DNA from: Gemmatimonadota bacterium
Lineage (GTDB): Bacteria > Gemmatimonadota > Gemmatimonadetes > Gemmatimonadales > GWC2-71-9
Assembly (NCBI GenBank): GCA_003222055.1
Contig: QHUT01000068.1
Location: forward strand, 25,853-89,852
Length of the DNA: 64,000 bases
Reading direction: 5' to 3'
How positions within the stretch are numbered: position 1 is the first letter of the stretch; every line of letters starts with the position of its first letter. Below the pieces are notes generated by a model. The model was not told the DNA's origin. It saw nothing but the letters and a program-made list of their open reading frames with translations, and made no database searches. The position numbers and the translations under genes were made by a program. Shown in pieces: positions 36,624 through 61,211 of this stretch.

Positions 36624-37445
36624 TTACTGCTTCGAAATGTCCCCTCTGGTGACGGTGCCGGACACGGTGAAGCCCTCGGACGGGATGAACACCTTGAAGA
36701 AGTCCGTCCCGCTCCCGGCCGGCCCGTTGTCGCATACGGTCAAGGTGTAACCGACCAAACTCCCTGTGTCCTCTCGACCGACGGCGTCGACCTCGACTCC
36801 GCGGCTCGGGTCGCTGCACGCGCCCGAGCTGTTGCGGTACGCCTTGAACGAGGTCGCGGGATCGGCCACCGGATCGGTGGTCAGTGTGGCGGGGGTGCCG
36901 CCGTGCAAGTCGGCGTAATCGGTGCCCGTGAACCGCCCGGTGAGGTCTGCCCGAATGTCGAAGTCGAAGGTGGTGGCATCGCTGCCGGGTGTAGGCGAGC
37001 CGGCGCCGATCTGACCCTGACCGATCACCTCGCCCGTCGCACCCCCGCCGCCCCCACCACCACCCCCCCCGCTAGCGGTGCAGCCCACGGAGAAGCCCGT
37101 CGTACCGACGACCCCCGCGATGAGCGAGACTGTGCGCGGGTTATCACTCACCGAGCAGTTCGACGGGACGTCCGCCAGGCCCACGGTGTGATCGCCCGCC
37201 GAAAGTCCCGTGAACGTGACGATGCCGTTCGCGCCGACCGACTGACTGTGTGAGTCATCCACGGTGACGGTGTAGCCGCTCGGCATGTCCGATCCCGAGG
37301 TGCTGACCGTGACGACGATTGTGCCGAGGTCCAGAAGACCGACGTCGGCTTCCGGCCTGGGACTCTGGGAATCGGTGCAGGCGCTCGCCGCGGCCAGCAT
37401 TGCGAATAGAACCGCCCGCACGGAGTTTCGCATTGGACGCGTCAT
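36624..37445 (-). CDS. Secreted lipoprotein: one Ig/PEGA-like repeat, poly-Gly linker, conserved C-terminal domain (family member 1)
   Basis: It has a lipobox (LAAASAC) and a Gly10 linker. The C-terminal domain is FDFDIRADLTGRF...VCDNGPAGSGTDFFKVFI...GTVTRGDISKQ. Confidence 0.75.
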   Translation of the reverse strand: MTRPMRNSVRAVLFAMLAAASACTDSQSPRPEADVGLLDLGTIVVTVSTSGSDMPSGYTVTVDDSHSQSVGANGIVTFTGLSAGDHTVGLADVPSNCSVSDNPRTVSLIAGVVGTTGFSVGCTASGGGGGGGGGGATGEVIGQGQIGAGSPTPGSDATTFDFDIRADLTGRFTGTDYADLHGGTPATLTTDPVADPATSFKAYRNSSGACSDPSRGVEVDAVGREDTGSLVGYTLTVCDNGPAGSGTDFFKVFIPSEGFTVSGTVTRGDISKQ

Positions 37446-39115
37446 ACAGCCCTCCCCTCGCACCAGAGGGGGGAGGCAATAACCGGACCACGTGCGGTCC
37501 CGCACGCGCGACCACGGGATTGGGCGCCGACGCGGCGCGCATGTGCCGTGGCGGCACGTCCGCACTGCGGCACGTCCGCACTGCAGCAAACCGTCATCGT
37601 GTAGCTGACCAGACTCCCGGTGTCCTCACGGCCGACGGCATCGACCTCCACACCCCGGGTCGGATCGCTGCACGCGCTCGAGCTGTTGCGGTACGCCCTG
37701 AACGATGTGGCGGGGTCCGCCACCGGATCGGTAGTCAGAGTGGCCGGCGTCGTGCCGTTGTGCAGGTCGGCGTAATCGGTGCCCGTGAACCGCCCCGTGA
37801 GGTCGGCGCGGACGTCGAAGTCGAACGTCGTGGCGTCGCTCCCGGGCGTGGGTGAGCCGCTCCCGATTTGCCCCCGGCCCACGACTTCAACGCCGCCGCC
37901 GCCGCCACCACCAGTAGGACCACAGCTCACGGAGAAGGTCGTGGTCGCCGTCCCGCCCGACGGGACGGTGACGGTGCGGGGGTTCGCCCCGCTCACGGCG
38001 CAGTTCGCCGCCAGGCCGGAGAGCGCCACGGTGTGATCGCCCGCTGGGCCAGTGAACGTGACACTGCCGTTGTCGGGAATCGGCTGACTCGCCGCCCCGC
38101 CGTCCACGGACACGGTGTAGCCGTCCGGATCGAGATCCCCGGTCGCACCGCTGGTCGCGGTGGTAACGGTGAGGCTGCCGGTGCCGCCGCCCGTCGGGGC
38201 GCAGCTCACCGAGTAGCTCGTGCTCCCGGTGCTCCCCGCGGTGACCGACACGGTCCGCGAGGTGCCGCCGCTCACGCTGCAATTGGCCGCCATGCCGCTC
38301 AGCACCACGGTGTGGCTGCCCGGGGCGAGCCCGCTAAACGTCGTGGTCCCGTTGTCCCCGATAGCCCGGCTCGTGGCCCCATCCAGGGTCACGGTGTAGC
38401 CGTCGGGATCGAGATCCCCACTCGCGCCGCTCGTGGACGTGGTGACGCTGAGGCTCCCGGCGGTGGGCGCGCAACTAATGGAGAAGTCGGTGCGTGTCGT
38501 GCTACCGGCGGTAACGGAGACGGTACGTGTGTTGCCGCCGCTGACCGTACAGTTGGACGCCACGCCGCTCAATGCGACGGAGTGGCTCCCCGCTGAAAGC
38601 CCGCTGAAGGTGACACTCCCGTTCGCTCCGATGGACCTGCTCGAGCTGCCGTCGACCGAAACGGTGTAGCCATCGGGATCGACATCCCCACTCGCGCCGC
38701 TCGTGGCCGTGGTGACGGTGAGGCTGCCGGTCGTGGGCAGCGCACTGCACCCGACGGAGAAGGTCGTGGCCGCGACCACGCCGGCGATGAGCGAAACGCT
38801 GCGCGGGTTGGCCCCGCTCACCGAGCAGTTGGAGGGGACGCCCGACAGGAAAACGGTGTGACTGCCCGGCGGGAGTCCGAGGAACGTCGCGACGGCGTTG
38901 GCGCCGACGGACTGGCTGGAGGAGCCGTCCACGACGATCGTGTACCCGCCCGGCGTGTTCGAGCCCGAGGTGGTGACGGTCACGGCCAGCGTGCCGACGT
39001 CGGGCAGGCCGAGCAGCGCTCGGGGCTTGGGACTCTGGGAATCGTTACATGCGCCCGCAACCACCAGTGTGGCAGCCGCCGCTGCCACTAAGCTCCAGCC
39101 CGTCCTGCGTGCCAT
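37442..39115 (-). CDS. Secreted lipoprotein paralog with four about 90-aa tandem repeats and a 3-prime-truncated C-terminal domain (possible pseudogene)
   Basis: It has a lipobox (VVAGAC). Homology to the downstream paralog stops after ...SYTMTVC (codon at 37586-37588). The last 47 codons are Arg/Ala-rich and read through the neighbour's upstream region to an ATGA overlap. Confidence 0.7.
   Translation of the reverse strand: MARRTGWSLVAAAAATLVVAGACNDSQSPKPRALLGLPDVGTLAVTVTTSGSNTPGGYTIVVDGSSSQSVGANAVATFLGLPPGSHTVFLSGVPSNCSVSGANPRSVSLIAGVVAATTFSVGCSALPTTGSLTVTTATSGASGDVDPDGYTVSVDGSSSRSIGANGSVTFSGLSAGSHSVALSGVASNCTVSGGNTRTVSVTAGSTTRTDFSISCAPTAGSLSVTTSTSGASGDLDPDGYTVTLDGATSRAIGDNGTTTFSGLAPGSHTVVLSGMAANCSVSGGTSRTVSVTAGSTGSTSYSVSCAPTGGGTGSLTVTTATSGATGDLDPDGYTVSVDGGAASQPIPDNGSVTFTGPAGDHTVALSGLAANCAVSGANPRTVTVPSGGTATTTFSVSCGPTGGGGGGGVEVVGRGQIGSGSPTPGSDATTFDFDVRADLTGRFTGTDYADLHNGTTPATLTTDPVADPATSFRAYRNSSSACSDPTRGVEVDAVGREDTGSLVSYTMTVCCSADVPQCGRAATAHARRVGAQSRGRACGTARGPVIASPLWCEGRAV
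37551..37582. repeat. Perfect 16-bp tandem duplication (GCGGCACGTCCGCACT x2) at the homology breakpoint
   Basis: The two copies are 37551-37566 and 37567-37582, directly next to the last homologous codon. Confidence 0.9.
37916..38995 (-). repeat. Four in-frame tandem coding repeats of about 265-280 bp
   Basis: The unit consensus is GSLTVTTATSGASGDxDPDGYTVSVDGxxSRSIGxNGSVTFSGLxxGSHxVxLSGxAxNCxVSGGxxRTVSVTAGST..SxSC. Confidence 0.85.
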
Positions 39116-50448: not shown

Positions 50449-52410
50449 TCAGGTGTGGTGCACCACCCCGTCCGCCACGTTGTCTTCGTGCCGCAGCGTG
50501 ACGACGGCGGTGCGCTTCCGTCCGAGGTCGACCTCCACCACCAGGTGGCTCTTGTCGCGCGCCATCCGCCAGCGGCGGGACGCCTGCGGCGCACCACCGG
50601 CCGCCGCCAGCGCGGCGGTGACCACCGCTTCCGGAGGATCGCTCACCGCCGCGAGCTCTGCGCAGGTGGCACAGCGGTGTGACTCGGCGCTCAGATCCGC
50701 GGTGCACACGCGACGGCCGCAATATCCGCATGCCGCACGATGCAGCTCGCACGTGCCGCGTCCGCAGATGGGACACGCGGCGACCTCGTCGGACGCGAAC
50801 AGCGCCGCTGGCTCCTCGGCGCAGGCAGCCCGGTGCCGGGCGCACACCAGCCGTCTCGACCGATCGGCGCGGCGCAGGTGGGGCGAGCAATGCACCTGTT
50901 CATCCACCGCGCACACCGCCTGATGCGCCGTGCACACCGACTTGCCGCAGGTGGCGCACGGCGCCACCTCGTCCACGCCCACCGGCTCGTTGGTCCCGCC
51001 CTCGCAGTACCTGAGACACGCGGCGCACAAGCGGCGGCTCCCCTTGGGGGCGTCGGCGTGGCTGCGCTGGGCGTGCCGGTTGCACACCTCCCGGCCGCAG
51101 CTGCCGCACGGCGCCAGGCACGCGGAGCACGCCGCGTGCCCGTCCTCGGCGCACGCGCCGGCGTGAGCGGTGCAGTGCTCGAGCCGGCAGGACGGGCACA
51201 CCTGCACGTGCTCGTCGCACGCCGGCTGGCCGTCCACGCGACACTCGAGCGTCCCGTGGTCGGCGCAGAAGTCCTCGCCGCATACCGAGCAGCGGTGCGA
51301 GCAGGCGTCACAGCCGCAGTGGTCGTGGCGGCAGATCACCAGCATGGCCGGCGGGCGGCCGCACTGCGGACACGCCAGCGACCAGCCGGACGCACCACTG
51401 AGCGACCGCTGCGCGGCGAACATCGCGCGGCGCCCCCGCACCGACTCGAGGTGCCATTCGGCGCGCTGCATCAGCACGGCGGCCTCCACCAGCTGCAGCG
51501 GGTGCACGACGGCCTTCACCTGGCTGCGGCGGATCTCTTCGGCGCGGCGACGCTCGGCGAGCGCCGAGACCGTCGCGATCGCCTCGGGGTTGGTTTGCTC
51601 CTTGACCACCGACTCGAAGTATCGGTCCAGCCGGCCGAGCTCGGCCGCGAGCTCCTGCTCCGCCGCTGCGCGGCGGGTGGCGACACGCTCCGCCGCCTTC
51701 TCCCGGAGATGGCTCAAGAGGAGTCGCAGCAGCTCACCGGCCTCCCGCGCCGGGACGGCCGCCGCCCCGGCGCCCGCCGGATCCGCGGGCGGGACCCGGC
51801 CGGCCTCGAGTTCGAGGAACGCTGCGGCCAGATCGGCACCGACCGGGGCGCCGGCCGACAGGTCGTACACGTCGGTCTCGACCACCGCCTCTTCCACGCC
51901 TGCTCCGGCGCGCAACACCACGCGCGCCACGAGCCGCCCCACGGGATGCACGGCCAGCCTGGTCGCACGGCGCTTGATCGTACCGTCGCGCACGGGAAGC
52001 GTCGGCTCGACGGCCTCCGGATCGCTCGACGGCGGAGCCGCGGGCGCGATCAGGCCGAGGGAGAGCCGCGCCGCCCGCGCGCGGATCGCCTCCACCACCT
52101 GTGAGACGAACGGGCTGCCGAGCACGGCGATTTCGGCGTCCGGGTCGCGCTCGAGCGCGTCGAGCGAGAACGCCACGCGCAAGCGGTCGCGGTCCCTGAA
52201 GAACGGGCGCTCGGCCGAGGGGAGCCTGAGCTCCGCGTGATCAGGGCCGAGGGCGGCCTGTTTCACGCCCGCGAGCTCACAGTAGCGCTCGAGCAGGGGC
52301 CGCAGCGCCGAGCCCGCCAGCGGGTCGGCGTCCCTCGGGGCCTGAGGCGCGGCCGCCGGTGGCTTGCGGCGGGGTTTGCGCGCCGGTCTGCGCGCCGCTG
52401 TGCGCTTCAC
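50449..52410 (-). CDS. 653-aa uncharacterised protein: basic N-terminal tail, alpha/beta plus coiled-coil region, tandem Cys/His zinc-knuckle-like array
   Basis: Its GTG at 52410 overlaps the SNF2 TGA (GTGA). The N-terminus is VKRTAARRPARKPRRKPP. Residues 347-583 hold about 38 Cys in repeated CxxC...CxxH units. The upstream 150 codons of ORF 50449..52860 overlap SNF2 and are rejected. Confidence 0.75.
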   Translation of the reverse strand: MKRTAARRPARKPRRKPPAAAPQAPRDADPLAGSALRPLLERYCELAGVKQAALGPDHAELRLPSAERPFFRDRDRLRVAFSLDALERDPDAEIAVLGSPFVSQVVEAIRARAARLSLGLIAPAAPPSSDPEAVEPTLPVRDGTIKRRATRLAVHPVGRLVARVVLRAGAGVEEAVVETDVYDLSAGAPVGADLAAAFLELEAGRVPPADPAGAGAAAVPAREAGELLRLLLSHLREKAAERVATRRAAAEQELAAELGRLDRYFESVVKEQTNPEAIATVSALAERRRAEEIRRSQVKAVVHPLQLVEAAVLMQRAEWHLESVRGRRAMFAAQRSLSGASGWSLACPQCGRPPAMLVICRHDHCGCDACSHRCSVCGEDFCADHGTLECRVDGQPACDEHVQVCPSCRLEHCTAHAGACAEDGHAACSACLAPCGSCGREVCNRHAQRSHADAPKGSRRLCAACLRYCEGGTNEPVGVDEVAPCATCGKSVCTAHQAVCAVDEQVHCSPHLRRADRSRRLVCARHRAACAEEPAALFASDEVAACPICGRGTCELHRAACGYCGRRVCTADLSAESHRCATCAELAAVSDPPEAVVTAALAAAGGAPQASRRWRMARDKSHLVVEVDLGRKRTAVVTLRHEDNVADGVVHHT

Positions 52411-54536
52411 GCGTCGGCCTCGATATCCACGAGCGCGAGGGGCAGGCGCTCGACCTGTGCTACGAGCGTGATCGCGCGGCCGGCGCTGGTCAGGCCGGTG
52501 AGCCGCACCAGGTCTCCGTACTTGGGATGATGGCCGGCCGGCTGGGCGGTCGTGACGCCACCGACCGGCTCGATCGACTCCAGCGCCTCGAGCACGTCCG
52601 TCACGTGCAAGCCGAGCTTGAGGCGCTTCGCGTCCCAGCCGGCTGCCCTGACGACCTGGCTCGTGCCGAACCCGAGGCGCAGGCGCCCGGGGACCGACAG
52701 CGTCCCGAACCGGCGCTCGAGCCGCATGGCGTTGTCGTCCGGCGCGATAAGGGAGTTGAGCGCTTCCTGCGCCTTGCCCGCCGCACTGCTCTTCTCGATG
52801 TCGGCGCCGAGCGTCGCCACCCGGCGTGCAAAGTCCGCGTCGTCTTCGGCGGCGAGCCATTCTTCGGCAAGCCGGCCTTCGAACTGCTGGGCGCCGCCGA
52901 ATTCCCCGAGGATCAGGTCCAGCTCGCCCACGACCAGCTCGAACAGCTTGATCTTCTGGTCCAGCAACTGGAGGATGTACGCCTCGATGGTCCCGGTCGC
53001 CGCCAGGTTCACGATGTGGACCTCGCGCGTCTGCCCGATGCGGTGCAGGCGGCCGATGCGCTGCTCCACCACCATCGGGTTCCAGGGCAGGTCGTAGTTC
53101 ACGAGCACGTTGCAGAACTGCAGATTGCGTCCTTCGCTGCCCGCGCGAGTGGCGATCAGCACACTGCGCGGGTCCTGGTGGAAGGCGCGGATCCGCGTAT
53201 CCCGCTCGGGCGTCGAATGAGCGCCCCAGTAGACGATGGGCGTACGGCCCAGCTGCTTGACGCGCTCTGCGATCAGCTCGATGGTCGGGCGGTGGTCGCT
53301 GAAGACCACCACGCGGTCGGGCGTTTCCTGCAGCAGTTTGGTCAGCACGTCCAGCTTGGCGTGGGTCTTGATGCGGCGCGCCCGCTGGGCCAGCTGGCGG
53401 GCGATCGTGCGGTACTCGGGGCTGATGCGCTCAGCCTCGCCCAGGTGCTCGAGCGACTCGGCGAGCGCGCGCGCGGAGGAGCACAGCCGCTGGCGCAGGT
53501 GGATGACCGCGAGCTGCAGGATTCCCTTCTTGGTGGGCCGCCGGCGCCGCTTGCCGTCTTCCACCTCTTCCTGCTCGGCCGGCTGGATGAAGCCCTCTCG
53601 GTACAGCCGTCGCAGGAACTCGGTGGTGCGCTGATACAGGTCCGCCTCGGCGCGCGTCAGCTTGACCTCGGGGTGGCGCGGCCGGCGCGGCGGCAGGTCC
53701 AGGTCGAGGGCGACGCTCGAGCGCCGCGTGCGGATCATCACCGCGTGCGTCAGGGCGCGCAGGGCTTCGGGGTCGCGCGGCTGGCGGCGGTCGCCCGAGA
53801 CGAGATGCTCGCTCTTGAACTCCTGCCAGGTGCCGAGCTGGCCGGGCCGGAGCAGCGTGATGAGGTTGTACAACTCGCGCAGGTCGTTCTGGAGCGGCGT
53901 CGCCGTGAGCAGCAGGATGAAGTCCCGCTCGATTTTCTCGATGAACTGGTAGGTCGCGCCGCGGTGGCTCTTCACCTTGTGTGCCTCGTCGACGATGACG
54001 AGATCCCAGCGGTGTCGCAGGATCTCTTCCGCGTGCCGGCGCGAGCGCGCGCGGTCGTGCGAGATGATCGCCCTGGTGATGGCAACGCGCTGCCAGTCGT
54101 CGGGCTCGGTCGGGGTCTCGAAGCGCTCGAAGAACTTCTCCTCGAGCTCGCCCTGCCACTGGCCCACGAGCGAGGCGGGCGTCAGGATCAGCACGCGGCG
54201 GGCGAGGCCGCGGATCGCCAGTTCTTTATAGATGATGCTCGCCTCGATCGTCTTGCCGAGGCCGACCTCGTCGGCGAGGATCGCGCGGCCGCCCATGTCG
54301 CGCAGCACGCGCTGGGCCACGTCGATCTGGTGGGGCAGCTCCTTGATCGCGTTGGCGTCGAGCGTGATCAGCCGGTCGAAGCCGGGGACGAGGGCGATAC
54401 GCTCCGCCTCGCGCCGCAGGTCGTACCAGGCACGATCGGCCGGCGGTTCCTTGAGCTTGTCGACGAAGAGCGTCAGGGACCGCTCGTCGACCGCCCAGGA
54501 GTCGTCGCGCAGTGGAGCGGGCTCAGGCAGCGTCAC
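52407..54536 (-). CDS. SNF2/Swi2-family ATPase (helicase-like translocase)
   Basis: It has motif I (DEVGLGKT), motif II (DEAH), LLLTATPLQNDLRELYNLITLL, and DLPWNPMVVEQRIGRLHRIGQ. The start is GTG, preceded by a GAGG-like Shine-Dalgarno sequence. Confidence 0.9.
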   Translation of the reverse strand: MTLPEPAPLRDDSWAVDERSLTLFVDKLKEPPADRAWYDLRREAERIALVPGFDRLITLDANAIKELPHQIDVAQRVLRDMGGRAILADEVGLGKTIEASIIYKELAIRGLARRVLILTPASLVGQWQGELEEKFFERFETPTEPDDWQRVAITRAIISHDRARSRRHAEEILRHRWDLVIVDEAHKVKSHRGATYQFIEKIERDFILLLTATPLQNDLRELYNLITLLRPGQLGTWQEFKSEHLVSGDRRQPRDPEALRALTHAVMIRTRRSSVALDLDLPPRRPRHPEVKLTRAEADLYQRTTEFLRRLYREGFIQPAEQEEVEDGKRRRRPTKKGILQLAVIHLRQRLCSSARALAESLEHLGEAERISPEYRTIARQLAQRARRIKTHAKLDVLTKLLQETPDRVVVFSDHRPTIELIAERVKQLGRTPIVYWGAHSTPERDTRIRAFHQDPRSVLIATRAGSEGRNLQFCNVLVNYDLPWNPMVVEQRIGRLHRIGQTREVHIVNLAATGTIEAYILQLLDQKIKLFELVVGELDLILGEFGGAQQFEGRLAEEWLAAEDDADFARRVATLGADIEKSSAAGKAQEALNSLIAPDDNAMRLERRFGTLSVPGRLRLGFGTSQVVRAAGWDAKRLKLGLHVTDVLEALESIEPVGGVTTAQPAGHHPKYGDLVRLTGLTSAGRAITLVAQVERLPLALVDIEADA

Positions 54537-54589
54537 ACGATGCCTCTGGAGTGGGGGTGGGCAATATAGGAAATCGGTAGATTCCCGGC

Positions 54590-57500
54590 ATGGCCTTCGA
54601 CCCGCTCCCGCAGCAGCGCCTTGCCATTGAAGCGCCGCTCGGCCCCGTCCTCGTGGTCGCGGGACCGGGCGCGGGAAAGACGTTCTGCCTCATCGCGCGT
54701 ATCAACCATCTCATCGCCACCCTGGGCGTGCCGCCCGAGCGCATCTGCGCCGTCACGTTCACGAATCGGGCGGCCGAGGAGATTGCCGTCCGTCTGAAGC
54801 ACACGCTGCGGGATCGTGCCGACGCCATCACGCGGGGCACGATCCACGCGTTGTGCCTCGCCCTGCTGCGGGAGCACGCCGAGGCGGCGGGCCTGCGGAG
54901 GGGGTTCGGCGTTGCCGACGAGCAGTACCAGAAGGTGATCCTGGGCCGGCTGCACGTGCCGCTCGAGCAGCGGGGATCGCTGCTGAACCGGTTCAGCCGG
55001 CATCGCGTGCAAAAGCGGGACTTCGAGCTGTCGGCCGAGGACGCGCGCCTGTTTCGCGAGTACGCCGTCTGGCTGGCGCACCGCAACATGGTGGACTTCG
55101 ACGACCTCGTCACCAAGGCCGAGCAGCTGGTGCGCACGCGGGGCGACATCGCCGACGCGATCGCCGCGCGCTGGGACTATCTCCTGGTCGACGAGTTCCA
55201 GGACGTGAACGCGGTTCAGTACGACCTCCTGAAGCGCCTCGCGGCGCCGCACGGCAACCTGTTTGCGGTCGGCGACGACGAGCAGTCGATCTTCACCTGG
55301 ACGGGGGCGGACCCGTATGTCCTGGTGCGGTTCGGCCGCGATTACGGGATCGAGCGACCCATCGTGCTGGACAAGAACTGCCGCTGCTCACGTCAGATCT
55401 TCGAGACCGCGCGGCGCGTGCTGGCGCAGAACCCCCAGCTGTTCGAGAAGCAGCTGAGCGCCGATCAGGAATCGCCGTACGACGTCGGCGCATTCACCTT
55501 CCGCGACGAAGAGGAAGAAGCCTCCTGGCTGATCGAAGACCTGCAGAGCGACCGCGCGGCGTCCGGCCTGGGATGGGGCGACTACGCAGTTCTCTACCGT
55601 AGGCACAAGCTCGGCGAGTACCTCGAGGGACGACTGCTCCGAGCGGGGATTCCCTGCCGGCTGGCGCGCGGCCGCTCGCTCGTCGAGGACGACGTCATCA
55701 AGTACGTGATCGCCGCGCTGCGGATCGTGCGCAATCCCGACGACGCCGTCGCGCTCGAGTCCTTCGCGCGCTGCGTGCTCTCGGCGCACTTCCTCCAGGA
55801 AGTGCTGGCCTCACCCCCGTTCCCCCTCTCGTCCTCACCCCCTGTCCCCCTCTCCGCTGATGCGGAGAGGGGGGACGCAGCCGACTTCCTTGCCGCCGTA
55901 CGCTCGCTGGCCCGGCGCCGGCCGGCGCAGGATCCCGACACGAAGAAGCTCTGGCGGCTCGTGTTCCAGGTCGAAAACCTCCGCGCCCTGCCTCGGTCGC
56001 ACCGCGCGTTGGCGCCGCTCGTCGATGAGATCCTCTCGCAGAGCGTCGGGCCCTACCGCAACGCGCTCGAGGAGCGGCACGACGAGCTCACCGACCCCGC
56101 CGATAGCCCCGACGCGGTGCGTCTCGCCGAGCGGCTCGCGGCGGCGATGGCGGCGGAGCAGGAGATCGTGATCGAGCCGCAGGGCGGGCTGGAGATTGCC
56201 TTGCGCGGGATGCTGATAGCGGCTGGTCTGCGTCACGTGCCAACCTCGACGACCGCCCGAACCTCCCCAACCCCCATCGCTTCCCCGCTCACCCTGTTCA
56301 AGGCGCTCCAACTGCTGCACTCGAAGGAGCTCGATACCGCGCTCGAGCGCTACGTCACCTTCGACCTGGAAACGACGGACAGCGACGTCGCCACGTGCGG
56401 TGTCGTCGAGCTCGGCGCGGCACGGGTCGTCAAGGGCGAGATCGTGGACCGGTTTCACACGCTGGTCCAGCCGTACCAGCCGATCTCGCCGCGGGCGAGC
56501 GCGATCCATGGCTACACGGATCGCGACGTGCAGAATGCGCGCTCCTTCGCCCAAGCGTGGCCCGAGTTTCGCGCTTTCGTCGGCAAGGACGTGCTCATCG
56601 CTCACAACGGCCAGCATTTCGACATTCCCGTGCTGCGCCGGCTCGCGGCCGGACAAGATGGAGTCGACGACCTCCTGTTCTACGACACGCTGCCGCTCGC
56701 TCGCTCTCTCTCCCGCGACAGCGCCAAGCTCGAGGACCTGGCCCTGCGGTTCGGGATCGACGCCGGGCGGGCCCACCACGCGTTGGACGACGCGGTCACG
56801 CTGGCCCGGGTCTACCGCGAGCTCGAGCGCCTGCGGGAAATTCGGGCGCGCAAGGCGGTGCTGGTCAACCTGCTCGACTACCTCGGATTGGCCTTGGCGC
56901 TGGAACAGGGACCGGGCAGCGGGGAGCGGGATCTGCTGTTCAAGCTCGCAAAGTTCTACACGTTGGGCCGATACAGCGATGCCCTGGCGTACTACGCGAT
57001 GGAGCGCGAGCGCACGGGTGGGGCGGCGCCTGCGGTCGACGAGGTGATCGAGCGGCTGGGCGGGCGCGCGCTCATGACACACCTCCGTGCCGAGCCCGAC
57101 CCGGCGCAGCGATATCCCGCCGCGGTGGCGCGCTTGCGGGCGCTGATGGACGGGCCCTCACCCGGTTCCTCACCCCCTGTCCCCCTCTCCTCGTCAAGGT
57201 CCTCACCCCCTGTCCCCCTCTCCACTACGTGGAGAGGGGGAACGCTCGAAGAAAGTATCGATCGCCTGCTCGAGCGCGTGGCGCTGTCCACGTCGGAGGG
57301 CATCGAGGTCGCGCCCGATCGCGTCAACCTCCTCACGCTGCACTCGACCAAGGGGCTGGAGTTCTCGCGCGTGTACATCGTGGGAGTGGAGGATTACCAG
57401 ATCCCGGGCTATCGCGAGTCGACGGAGAAGCGGCAGGCCGAGATTCAGGAGGCGCGGAGGCTTCTGTATGTGGGTATGACGCGGGCGCGGCAGCGGCTGG

Positions 57501-57610
57501 TGCTGACGCGGGTCGAGCGCCGGTTCGGGATGGAGGCGGGGGGAAGTACGTTCCTCGAGGAAATGGAGTTGGAGGTACAAGACGTGGCAGCGCCCGGAGC
57601 GAAGCCCTAG
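54590..57610 (+). CDS. UvrD/Rep-family helicase with an internal DEDDh (DnaQ-like) 3-prime-5-prime exonuclease domain
   Basis: Helicase motifs are AGPGAGKT, TFTNRAAEE, VDEFQD, GDDEQSIF, LHSTKGLEF and YVGMTRAR. The exonuclease motifs at about 56351-56824 are FDLETT, AHNGQHFDIPVL and HHALDDA. Confidence 0.9.
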   Translation: MAFDPLPQQRLAIEAPLGPVLVVAGPGAGKTFCLIARINHLIATLGVPPERICAVTFTNRAAEEIAVRLKHTLRDRADAITRGTIHALCLALLREHAEAAGLRRGFGVADEQYQKVILGRLHVPLEQRGSLLNRFSRHRVQKRDFELSAEDARLFREYAVWLAHRNMVDFDDLVTKAEQLVRTRGDIADAIAARWDYLLVDEFQDVNAVQYDLLKRLAAPHGNLFAVGDDEQSIFTWTGADPYVLVRFGRDYGIERPIVLDKNCRCSRQIFETARRVLAQNPQLFEKQLSADQESPYDVGAFTFRDEEEEASWLIEDLQSDRAASGLGWGDYAVLYRRHKLGEYLEGRLLRAGIPCRLARGRSLVEDDVIKYVIAALRIVRNPDDAVALESFARCVLSAHFLQEVLASPPFPLSSSPPVPLSADAERGDAADFLAAVRSLARRRPAQDPDTKKLWRLVFQVENLRALPRSHRALAPLVDEILSQSVGPYRNALEERHDELTDPADSPDAVRLAERLAAAMAAEQEIVIEPQGGLEIALRGMLIAAGLRHVPTSTTARTSPTPIASPLTLFKALQLLHSKELDTALERYVTFDLETTDSDVATCGVVELGAARVVKGEIVDRFHTLVQPYQPISPRASAIHGYTDRDVQNARSFAQAWPEFRAFVGKDVLIAHNGQHFDIPVLRRLAAGQDGVDDLLFYDTLPLARSLSRDSAKLEDLALRFGIDAGRAHHALDDAVTLARVYRELERLREIRARKAVLVNLLDYLGLALALEQGPGSGERDLLFKLAKFYTLGRYSDALAYYAMERERTGGAAPAVDEVIERLGGRALMTHLRAEPDPAQRYPAAVARLRALMDGPSPGSSPPVPLSSSRSSPPVPLSTTWRGGTLEESIDRLLERVALSTSEGIEVAPDRVNLLTLHSTKGLEFSRVYIVGVEDYQIPGYRESTEKRQAEIQEARRLLYVGMTRARQRLVLTRVERRFGMEAGGSTFLEEMELEVQDVAAPGAKP
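55809..55876 (+). repeat. Intragenic palindromic repeat element, copy A
   Basis: A degenerate unit (55809-55830) is followed by the perfect 23-mer CCTCACCCCCTGTCCCCCTCTCC (55833-55855). Then come an 8-nt loop and GGAGAGGGGGG. It is translated in frame as SPPFPLSSSPPVPLSADAERGD. Confidence 0.85.
57168..57241 (+). repeat. Intragenic palindromic repeat element, copy B
   Basis: The same 23-mer occurs twice (57168-57190 and 57201-57223). Then come a 7-nt loop and GGAGAGGGGGA. It is translated in frame as SSPPVPLSSSRSSPPVPLSTTWRGG. Confidence 0.85.
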
Positions 57611-58116
57611 TCCTTCTTCCAGGCGCCGAGCAGGCGTCGCAACAGAACGAGCTGGCCCAGGTGGTACGAGTTGTGGTCGGCGAGCACCAGCGCTTCACGC
57701 AGCACGGTTTGTCCGGTGCCGTGGGGAATGCGGGCAAACAGGTCGGTCTTCGGGTCGGCCACGAGGCGCTGCATGGCGCGCAGGTCGCGCTCCACCTGGG
57801 CCACGCTCGCGTCCCAGGCGGCGGCCTCTGGCGGGGCGTCGTGCTCGGGCCAGTAGCCCGCCGGCCACTCCGGAGAAACGTGCTCCTCGCTCTTCGTGAA
57901 CTCGACGATGTCCCACTGCGAGATGCGGACGTGCTCGAGCAGGCGCCACGGCGTAAAGGGCTGCCCGGCGGGTCTCGTGCCCCGGAGCGCGCCCGGCCAA
58001 TCGGCGAGCGCGTCCCGGAAGGTGACGTGGGCGTGACCGCCGCGCAGCAGCTCGAGCACGTGGTCGCGGACGGCGCCACGTGGATCGGTGCGCCGCGGCT
58101 TGCGTTTGACGGGCAT
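57607..58116 (-). CDS. DinB-fold (DinB_2-like) protein
   Basis: It has His-containing helices (HVLELLRGGHAHV and ADHNSYHLGQLVLLRR). GGAGG lies upstream of ATG 58116. Confidence 0.75.
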   Translation of the reverse strand: MPVKRKPRRTDPRGAVRDHVLELLRGGHAHVTFRDALADWPGALRGTRPAGQPFTPWRLLEHVRISQWDIVEFTKSEEHVSPEWPAGYWPEHDAPPEAAAWDASVAQVERDLRAMQRLVADPKTDLFARIPHGTGQTVLREALVLADHNSYHLGQLVLLRRLLGAWKKD

Positions 58117-58165
58117 GCAAGGCCTCCTGGGCTTCTGGCGCAGCCTTGAAGTTACCACCCACCGT

Positions 58166-58192
58166 GATCCCCGGGCTGGCGCCCGGGGTCAG
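58166..58192 (-). repeat. REP-like palindromic element, copy 3 (inverted orientation)
   Basis: CCCCGGGC-TGGC-GCCCGGGG, between the DinB start and the ogt stop. Confidence 0.75.
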
Positions 58193-58203
58193 TTGGGTCC
58201 GGT

Positions 58204-58722
58204 TCAGGCCCTTCCCAGCATCAGCAGCACGCCCTCGTGCTCGAGCAGCCAGCGCTTTCGATCGAGGCCGCCGCCGAAGCCCGTCAACTCCCCGCGCGCG
58301 CCGACCACCCGGTGGCAGGGAACGATGATAGGGATGGGATTCTTGCCGTTGGCGGCGCCCACGGCGCGCGTCGCGTGCGGGTCGCCGAGCCGCAGCGCCA
58401 GCTGGCCGTAGCTGGTGGTGGCGCCATAGGGAATGGTGCGCAGCAGGTCCCAGACGCGTCGCTCGAATGCCGAGCCGGCGGCGTCGAGCGGCAGGTCGAA
58501 CGTCGTGCGAGTCCGATCGAAATACTCGGTCAATTGCCGGCGGACGCGCGCCAGCAACGCGCCGGCGGGACCGCGGCCATCGTCTTCCACCCACCCCGGC
58601 TGCTCCTCGGGTGCAGCACGGTTGCGGTGGACCGGAAAGAACACTCCCTTTAGGGCGGTGTCCGAGGCCGCGAGGACGAGTTCGCCAACGGGACTGGGGA
58701 AGCGCGTGAACGTGATGGGCAT
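58204..58722 (-). CDS. ogt: Methylated-DNA-protein-cysteine methyltransferase
   Basis: The active site is IPIIVPCHRVVG, with the preceding YGQLA and NGKNP motifs. Confidence 0.9.
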   Translation of the reverse strand: MPITFTRFPSPVGELVLAASDTALKGVFFPVHRNRAAPEEQPGWVEDDGRGPAGALLARVRRQLTEYFDRTRTTFDLPLDAAGSAFERRVWDLLRTIPYGATTSYGQLALRLGDPHATRAVGAANGKNPIPIIVPCHRVVGARGELTGFGGGLDRKRWLLEHEGVLLMLGRA

Positions 58723-61186: not shown

Positions 61187-61211
61187 ACCCCGGGCTTGCG
61201 CCCGGGGTCAG
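61185..61211 (-). repeat. REP-like palindromic element, copy 4, acting as a convergent-gene hairpin
   Basis: ACCCCGGGC-TTGC-GCCCGGGGT. It abuts the stop at 61184-61186 and overlaps the nadC stop at 61208-61210. Confidence 0.8.

Follow-up and report, generated by a model that had tools for sequence, protein, structure and literature searches.

The BoxC/PIT/TM_ECO repeats have stood since the 1990s among the oldest unexplained repeats of bacteria and are recognized by three blocks (a pyrimidine block, a complementary purine block and a mirror purine block) and by raised local variability between relatives. In the key paper, Holder et al. (2015; PMC4666352, which cites earlier work by Hoyne and Maher) reported 3610 copies of the intrastrand triplex motif TM_ECO in 262 proteobacterial genomes, tied the motif to local instability and found no mobility gene; the triplex formed in vitro as single-stranded DNA, as judged by circular dichroism and nuclear magnetic resonance, and was undetected in vivo. 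The motif was handled there as an intergenic Escherichia coli element, with maps and controls taken from non-coding regions. Here we analyze a 64,000-nucleotide stretch of DNA from a Gemmatimonadota bacterium (contig QHUT01000068.1 of assembly GCA_003222055.1, positions 25,853 to 89,852 of the forward strand; hereafter the window), in which a helicase gene carries two in-frame inserts that appear to belong to this class of repeat. What is new is a gene-invading variant with 10-nt blocks, located inside a conserved DNA-repair gene and read as predicted disordered loops.

Short structured repeats that colonize genes in frame are familiar from another group of bacteria. Rickettsia palindromic elements (RPEs) are about 100-150 bp long, occur only in Rickettsia and relatives and form separate sequence families; to our knowledge, they lack a triplex-type third block and are not known to be partnered by a nuclease. 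The original prediction, made from the sequence of the window, had likened the inserts to RPEs, and the BoxC/PIT/TM_ECO class, to which we assign them on sequence below, was missed in it.

A three-block repeat at two sites of a helicase gene

The host gene (positions 54590-57610, plus strand), identified from its open reading frame (ORF), Pfam matches and an AlphaFold2 model, encodes a UvrD/Rep-type superfamily 1 helicase of 1006 amino acids (aa) in which an RNase_T (DnaQ-like 3'-5' exonuclease) module interrupts the C-terminal half (Pfam: UvrD-helicase, 7-252, 4e-60; RNase_T, 589-742, 6e-24; UvrD_C, 887-974, 1e-37). The G+C content around the gene is 65-72%, and the host is a soil bacterium. 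The ORF continues uninterrupted through both inserts, reading ...LASPPFPLSSSPPVPLSADAERGDAA... and ...SSPPVPLSSSRSSPPVPLSTTWRGGT..., respectively. The 23-mer CCTCACCCCCTGTCCCCCTCTCC occurs without mismatch on the plus strand at 55833-55855, 57168-57190 and 57201-57223, and with three mismatches at 55809-55831; all four units share one strand and one reading frame, and shuffling of the window gave 0.00 matches to the 23-mer. The 23-mer, its degenerate copy, the hairpin, the in-frame Pro/Ser-rich peptide and the two further copies downstream in the same gene and orientation had all been predicted, and each is borne out.

At site A, unit 1 (55809-55831) consists of the third-strand block CCTCACCCCC, the spacer GTT and the degenerate pyrimidine block CCCCCTCTCG; its own purine arm is missing, and unit 2 follows 24 nt (8 codons) downstream. 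A unit with the GTT spacer is the sole unit in two one-unit alleles (L123 and L127). The complete element (55833-55874) comprises the third strand CCTCACCCCC (55833-55842), the spacer TGT, the pyrimidine stem CCCCCTCTCC (55846-55855), the loop GCTGATGC (55856-55863) and the purine stem GGAGAGGGGGG (55864-55874), that is, GGAGAGGGGG at 55864-55873 with an additional G at 55874. Unit 1 and the complete element together read as SPPFPLSSSPPVPLSADAERGD. Site B starts with a partial third-strand-like block, CCCTCACCC (57155-57163, read as PSP), recognized by allele comparison since it is present in every filled and scar allele of this site and missing from the empty ones. Unit 1 of site B (57168-57200), a perfect 23-mer followed by the 10-nt spacer TCGTCAAGGT, likewise lacks a purine arm and precedes unit 2 by 33 nt (11 codons). 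The complete element (57201-57243) has the structure CCTCACCCCC TGT CCCCCTCTCC, loop ACTACGT, GGAGAGGGGG and tail AAC, with hairpin stems at 57214-57223 and 57231-57240, and reads as SSPPVPLSTTWRGGT. Folding gave stems of 13-14 bp at both sites, with centroid energies of about -27 to -30 kcal/mol.

Both complete elements therefore follow one GC-rich design of about 42 bp, CCTCACCCCC-NNN-CCCCCTCTCC-loop-GGAGAGGGGG. The reverse complement of the window copies reads CCCCCTCTCC-loop-GGAGAGGGGG-ACA-GGGGGTGAGG (at site B, a G-rich strand of 43 nt, CCCCCTCTCC-ACGTAGT-GGAGAGGGGG-ACA-GGGGGTGAGG) and has a purine-motif triplex register of 10/10, and the sense (mRNA) strand has a pyrimidine-motif register of 9/10. 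The description of the insert as a palindromic element thus holds for its hairpin and not for its overall structure, which is no simple palindrome but a three-block mirror-plus-hairpin with tandem 5' units.

The window copies have the three blocks of the BoxC/PIT/TM_ECO class, and the two sites vary among relatives (0-3 units and scars, see below). They share with TM_ECO the C-rich, complementary G-rich and mirror G-rich blocks, the 3-nt spacer and a ...GGGTGAGG core with T at the mirror position, and both kinds of repeat are multi-copy and dispersed across bacteria (in the present case as judged from other genomes, viral contigs and soil communities), locally unstable and mostly without an adjacent transposase. 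The published TM_ECO pattern, CCCTCNCCC-N3-6-GGGNGAGGG-N3-GGGNGAGGG, nevertheless fails to match either strand of either copy, as the blocks measure 10 nt with G5 runs and the loops 7-8 nt, so that the repeat is a variant rather than TM_ECO proper. In addition to these 10-nt blocks and to loops of up to 8 nt or more, it differs from TM_ECO in that the present copies lie in frame inside a gene and have tandem additional units. A search of Rfam returned only sub-threshold chance matches on the hairpins (best, 18.8 bits versus a gathering score of 45). On its sequence, we classify the inserts as solo, gene-less copies of a 10-nt-block variant of the BoxC/PIT/intrastrand triplex motif class.

Empty and filled alleles among orthologues

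A search of protein collections yielded 120 orthologues with 82-100% identity, among which both sites are polymorphic in length, with 0-3 units or deletion scars. Protein alleles of site A are empty (FLQEV-EAAIGSSG-DFL) or hold one (LASPPFPLSANAERGD), two or three units, and those of site B are empty (ALIDADASATLSDSIDRLL), hold one to three SPPxPLSTTW units or have the short form DEPSPAGTL, which keeps only the outer edges of the filled allele and has the appearance of a deletion scar. The DNA of some close orthologues, 82-89% identical, likewise shows empty sites (A, gaagtcGAGGCGGCGATCGGC...gatttc; B, ...gacgcctcggccaccctctccgacagc...). In DNA from nine orthologous contigs with empty and filled sites, filling of site A replaced about 12 nt rather than adding sequence cleanly, no duplication of flanking bases was found at the filled sites, and two types of 5' junction were seen at site A (gaagtgctgg/CCTCAC and gcgatctcgg/CCTCAC). 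Orthologous site-B arrays contain 1-3 units with a period of 33 nt. Since the array periods are 24 or 33 nt, every allele stays in frame, and all alleles observed are multiples of three.

An exhaustive representative search added 25 full-length distant relatives (29-53% identity). The inserts at A and B are absent from all 25, whose lengths at both sites equal those of the empty alleles. This absence, together with the empty sites in some close orthologues, indicates that the peptide is an insertion, as had been predicted, and not an ancestral linker, and the ancestral state of both sites, as reconstructed from these comparisons, is empty. The Pro/Ser-rich low complexity of the peptides and the variable number of tandem units would also fit an ancestral low-complexity linker, or a microsatellite-like expansion in place that is unconnected to any dispersed element. 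We give this explanation almost no credence, because it meets not only the 25 distant orthologues but also the full 42-nt architecture, which recurs identically at unrelated loci and at the ends of gene cassettes (see below).

Site A is filled in 111 of the 120 close orthologues. On a tree of the 120 built after removal of the insert columns, the states of presence and absence require a minimum of 7 changes for site A and of 20 for site B, and empty alleles of the exact ancestral type (EAAIGSSG) are nested within filled clades. Such scattered states reflect either recurrent gain and loss or frequent recombination among the alleles, and chimeric metagenome contigs could contribute to them. In Logan contigs from four soil metagenomes that contain the gene, we found joints matching the empty site-B allele as well as shorter alleles at both sites. 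The element word was 5-20 times as deep as the gene body in these soil runs and was joined to many mutually unlike flanks, indicating that the element is a dispersed repeat in these soil communities. Taken together, the alleles document insertion into two surface-loop positions in a recent soil lineage, at sites that are still turning over.

The same depth excess, and the many contigs that break at the element, would be expected if an abundant community sequence had been stitched into the gene during metagenome assembly, and unit numbers could be mis-assembled. We nonetheless judge an assembly artefact very improbable: the gene continues in frame on both sides of the element in more than 100 independently assembled orthologues (JGI, ENA and NCBI), and the alleles are structured and in frame. 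This population allele series at the helicase gene is the most useful new result, since more than 100 natural alleles with gain, tandem expansion, contraction and loss make both the rate and the mechanism of turnover measurable.

Predicted effect of the inserts on the protein

An AlphaFold2 model of the helicase built from a 35-sequence alignment had a mean predicted local distance difference test (pLDDT) score of 85.8. The only segments with a pLDDT below 50 were residues 411-428, 857-883 and the C-terminal tail 1001-1006, and the first two of these are the inserts. Both were modeled as coil between confident helices, insert A between helices 399-407 and 430-443 and insert B between helices 843-853 and 886-898, and both were placed at junctions of the helicase core with the exonuclease-bearing module. 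The inserted peptide is therefore predicted to be a disordered, Pro/Ser-rich loop that leaves the fold undisturbed. Only one of the six reading frames of the 23-mer core contains a stop, which, with the multiple-of-three alleles, fits selection retaining only harmless insertions.

Alternatively, the inserts could have been selected because they are functional, either as flexible Pro/Ser linkers that tune domain movement or as a structure in DNA or RNA through which the gene is regulated or on which the helicase-nuclease itself acts. Two independent sites in one DNA-structure-processing enzyme, with no other copy in 64 kb, and the persistence of inserts in most close orthologues would be in keeping with a function. 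However, empty, one-, two- and three-unit and scar alleles coexist on backbones that are nearly identical, the inserts, which distant orthologues lack, are predicted to be disordered, and the same element is found in unrelated genes and in intergenic DNA of many phyla. We consider a selected function improbable, and the presence of two sites in one gene versus none in the other 61 kb may be due to chance if the genome has dozens of copies.

Two other indel hotspots of the protein, at residues ~556-566 and ~772-778 (window ~56255-56290 and 56903-56925), were considered as further sites of the element and rejected, as element peptides are confined to the two sites described above. Orthologues carry other linkers there, for example PSQVSGPLKPRGTAPGLTHPGETLVNADGGERGLA replacing PTSTTSRTSPTSI and an 8-aa insert (SPKGVPDG), which could be small inserts of another kind.

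Occurrence in other genomes and genes

The original prediction also called for recurrence of the repeat in the genome. In other genomes, its core was found in at least 120 stretches when one genome per species was scanned with the middle three bases left free, and in 97 viral contigs or stretches; the depth excess in soil metagenomes agrees. Among the matches listed, the phyla include Planctomycetota, Chloroflexota, Bacteroidota, Cyanobacteria, Gemmatimonadota, Acidobacteriota, Proteobacteria and Armatimonadota, cultured isolates are represented, the CCTCACCCCC-NNN-CCCCCTCTCC-loop-GGAGAGGGGG architecture is uniform, and the closest variants (TGT spacer and AACG tail) come from Gemmatimonadota metagenome-assembled genomes (MAGs). 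Of 143 copies from the genome scan, about 80% are solo, about 16% are paired with an inverted copy at a spacing of 49-141 bp, and for about 3.5% a partner lies at the distance seen in the cassettes described below.

Solo copies were also found in frame in other genes (loci L033, L044, L077, L087, L042 and L013), where Pfam domains flank the copy on a PriA (Nostoc), HypF, GcvP, MnmE, HemN-like radical-SAM or AlaRS protein. Both orientations occur in genes, the C-sense strand reading SPPxPLS and the G-sense strand reading ..ERGxGGE... These copies make the comparison with RPEs apt as a description of behavior: in both cases, a short structured repeat seems to settle in frame at tolerated positions and to be read as an additional peptide with the host protein intact. 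The comparison does not extend to membership, as the element here is about 42 bp long, is spread across phyla and resides in a soil bacterium. For annotation, 'SPPxPLS...WRGG/ERGD' and '...ERGxGGEV' peptides in predicted proteins are explained as repeat-derived inserts.

Two viral contigs of ~28-36 kb, IMGVR_UViG_3300042525_000913 (L142/L147/L151/L154) and IMGVR_UViG_3300044730_001458 (L148/L175/L193), each contain at least ten motif copies, with nearly all of them on the same strand. Tandem units were present in a larger share of viral loci (20 of 149) than of genome loci (5 of 143). In a Fimbriimonadales MAG (JAOAES010000233.1; L053:1-45, reverse strand), a Nextera-type sequence, AGATGTGTATAAGAGACAG, lies near a copy of the repeat and is likely an untrimmed adapter in the public assembly.

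Association with DUF559 nuclease genes

DUF559 (PF04480, a Vsr-fold PD-(D/E)XK nuclease; E about 3e-34) was first met beside the element at two Bacteroidota loci. It is present in 6 of 225 sequences (224 loci and the window), in all six at 13-156 bp from the element, and was not found in the viral loci. The usual order is a C-sense element, about 100 nt, a DUF559 ORF of ~115 aa and a G-sense element, with the ends swapped at one locus (L001). For a reciprocal test, 80 metagenome loci were picked only for similarity to DUF559. The two-sided geometry (upstream C-sense and downstream G-sense element) was present at 31 of the 80, and about 19 more were partial, compared with 2 of 380 windows per orientation (~0.5%) in the far flanks of the same loci. 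These cassettes are 465-608 bp long with DUF559 as the sole gene, and each block of their ends matches the window copies, as do the TGT/TGA spacer and the AACG or G-ACG tails. As far as we searched the literature, a DUF559 cassette with triplex-repeat ends is not in print, and no link to repeats appears in the titles and abstracts of the 25 papers found to contain the term DUF559.

None of the 31 complete cassettes has a direct target-site duplication of 2-10 nt, which separates them from miniature inverted-repeat transposable elements (MITEs) derived from DDE transposons, with their terminal inverted repeats and target-site duplications. The dinucleotides GT...AC extend the inverted repeat by 2 nt in about half of the cassettes, and no conserved target was found at the cassette borders beyond this extension. 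The possibility that the left and right cassette ends have distinct loops corresponding to sites A and B was rejected because the loops vary freely. The helicase copies themselves are not cassettes, being solo ends in one orientation with no DUF559 in the window, but since they match the cassette ends in sequence, they can be regarded as gene-less relatives of them.

In their arrangement, these loci recall REPIN-RAYT systems, in which hairpin repeats likewise occur as singlets and inverted doublets without target-site duplications and a small single-gene 'parent' lies between inverted copies. Repetitive extragenic palindromic (REP) sequences are extragenic by definition (PMC3733652) and are imperfect palindromes of 20-40 nt with a conserved GTAG or CGTC head. 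The repeat described here has no GTAG or CGTC head (its head is CCTCACCCCC, and GT precedes about half of the cassette ends), has a third-strand block and lies in frame inside genes, and the gene flanked by it is DUF559 rather than an IS200/IS605-like Y1 (HUH) RAYT gene, although no RAYT-directed search was made. The nuclease family provides a second parallel. A survey of the PD-(D/E)XK superfamily (PMC3424549) places DUF559 in a VSR/DUF559/DUF2726 clade that includes a group I intron homing endonuclease, showing that this fold can drive the mobility of selfish DNA. The homing endonuclease is encoded by its intron and cuts duplex DNA of the intron-less allele, whereas there is no intron or intein here, the ends are folded repeats and the nuclease activity is putative.

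A connection between the nuclease and the triplex motif may extend to E. coli K-12, where a degenerate hairpin marks the 3' end of the DUF559 gene ycjD and TM_ECO #9 (in the table of Holder et al.) lies ~190 bp downstream in the expected orientation; PMC4666352 mentions neither DUF559 nor ycjD. At least 80% of the fabI-ycjD-sapF locus is present in one place in 3346 of 5426 genomes, and the sampled others match mainly the fabI side. Replacement of the sapF-side region, starting ~45 nt beyond TM_ECO, is seen in many E. coli, O157:H7 among them; at this junction in O157:H7, which leads into a different island, no motif was found.

Three further DUF559 loci deserve mention. In a Cytophagales MAG (JADBYQ010000091.1; L006:6550-7250), a whole DUF559 cassette is in frame within the leucyl-tRNA synthetase LeuRS, just before the editing domain (Pfam: tRNA-synt_1, 36-169; DUF559, 350-454; editing domain, 483-643). 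In the cultured isolate Hymenobacter sp. BT190 (L015:3700-4350), the 3' end of a GATase_5 (PurL-like) ORF continues in frame into a DUF559 cassette that has both inverted ends. Finally, the ycjD-fabI spacer of E. coli K-12 (L305:5040-5840) contains a duplicated fragment of the ycjD 3' end (ggagacggtgctggagaatattc...) between the degenerate hairpin and TM_ECO #9.

Origin and spread of the repeat

The best explanation of the helicase inserts, and one that we regard as likely, is that copies of a dispersed repeat of the BoxC/PIT class were inserted in frame and are tolerated in loops. According to this explanation, the element would fold as single-stranded DNA (a hairpin plus a third strand) during replication or repair, and the fold would provide for copying to new sites and for the gain and loss of units, with the work done either by a DUF559 nuclease supplied from elsewhere (in trans) or by ectopic recombination and template switching where the DNA is folded. 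The surviving copies would be those that selection tolerates, namely those that are in frame, stop-free and in loops, and the helicase would gain no function from them.

How the repeat moves is less certain. Host processes alone (slippage, template switching and ectopic gene conversion) may spread it, with DUF559 as a passenger or with a preference for such sites; this would leave the insertion, frame and tolerated-loop parts of the explanation unchanged. The large solo fraction, the few copies at cassette distance and the lack of target-site duplications all agree with host-driven spread, as do changes by whole 24- or 33-nt units and the scars, which are typical of slippage, and the findings of Holder et al. 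on instability and mobility genes. On the other hand, slippage is unable to make the first copy at a new site, and near-identical 42-nt sequences across phyla together with the strict DUF559 geometry call for a partner or shared machinery. Spread driven purely by the host is to our mind a serious possibility, though not a probable one, and movement driven by the nuclease is only slightly less likely.

More speculatively, the BoxC, PIT and triplex repeats could be the folded ends and gene-less offspring of a selfish element that has DUF559 as its only protein, makes no target duplication and can settle in frame within essential genes, a joint proposal that we put forward tentatively and consider somewhat unlikely. 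Were it true, the helicase alleles (empty, one to three units, scars and at least two 5' junctions), which sit on backbones 82-100% identical, would be a record of its ongoing activity in soil. The tight and oriented association with DUF559 gives the repeat a testable enzyme partner and gives the large DUF559 family, including E. coli YcjD, a candidate substrate.

Several observations weigh against insertion of a mobile, folded repeat as outlined here. In the 64-kb window, no copy of the motif was found outside the helicase gene and no DUF559 gene was found. The cassettes lack both target-site duplications and a known cut site, and with about 80% of copies being solo, the nuclease could be carried along with the repeat and not be what moves it. 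The triplex was not seen in vivo for TM_ECO (PMC4666352). Recombination between alleles or chimeric assemblies can give the scattered pattern on the tree without any new insertion. Finally, translation of the inserts is presumed solely from the intact reading frame.

Other features of the window

The helicase-exonuclease gene is part of a DNA-repair neighborhood (window 52407-58722) whose conservation extends to several orthologous contigs. Upstream of the gene lies a divergent SNF2-family helicase gene, and DinB_2-like and O6-alkylguanine methyltransferase genes follow it downstream. A second, unrelated palindrome, ACCCCGGGC-N4-GCCCGGGGT, occurs at 29-50, 1246-1267, 58168-58189 and 61187-61208 (four copies versus 0.01 expected), one of them between the DinB_2-like and methyltransferase genes, and may be a REP-like element or a terminator. 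In addition, clustered long imperfect direct repeats at 36700-39100, with units of ~270, 170 and 120 nt and 64-83% identity, probably mark a gene for a repeat-domain protein.

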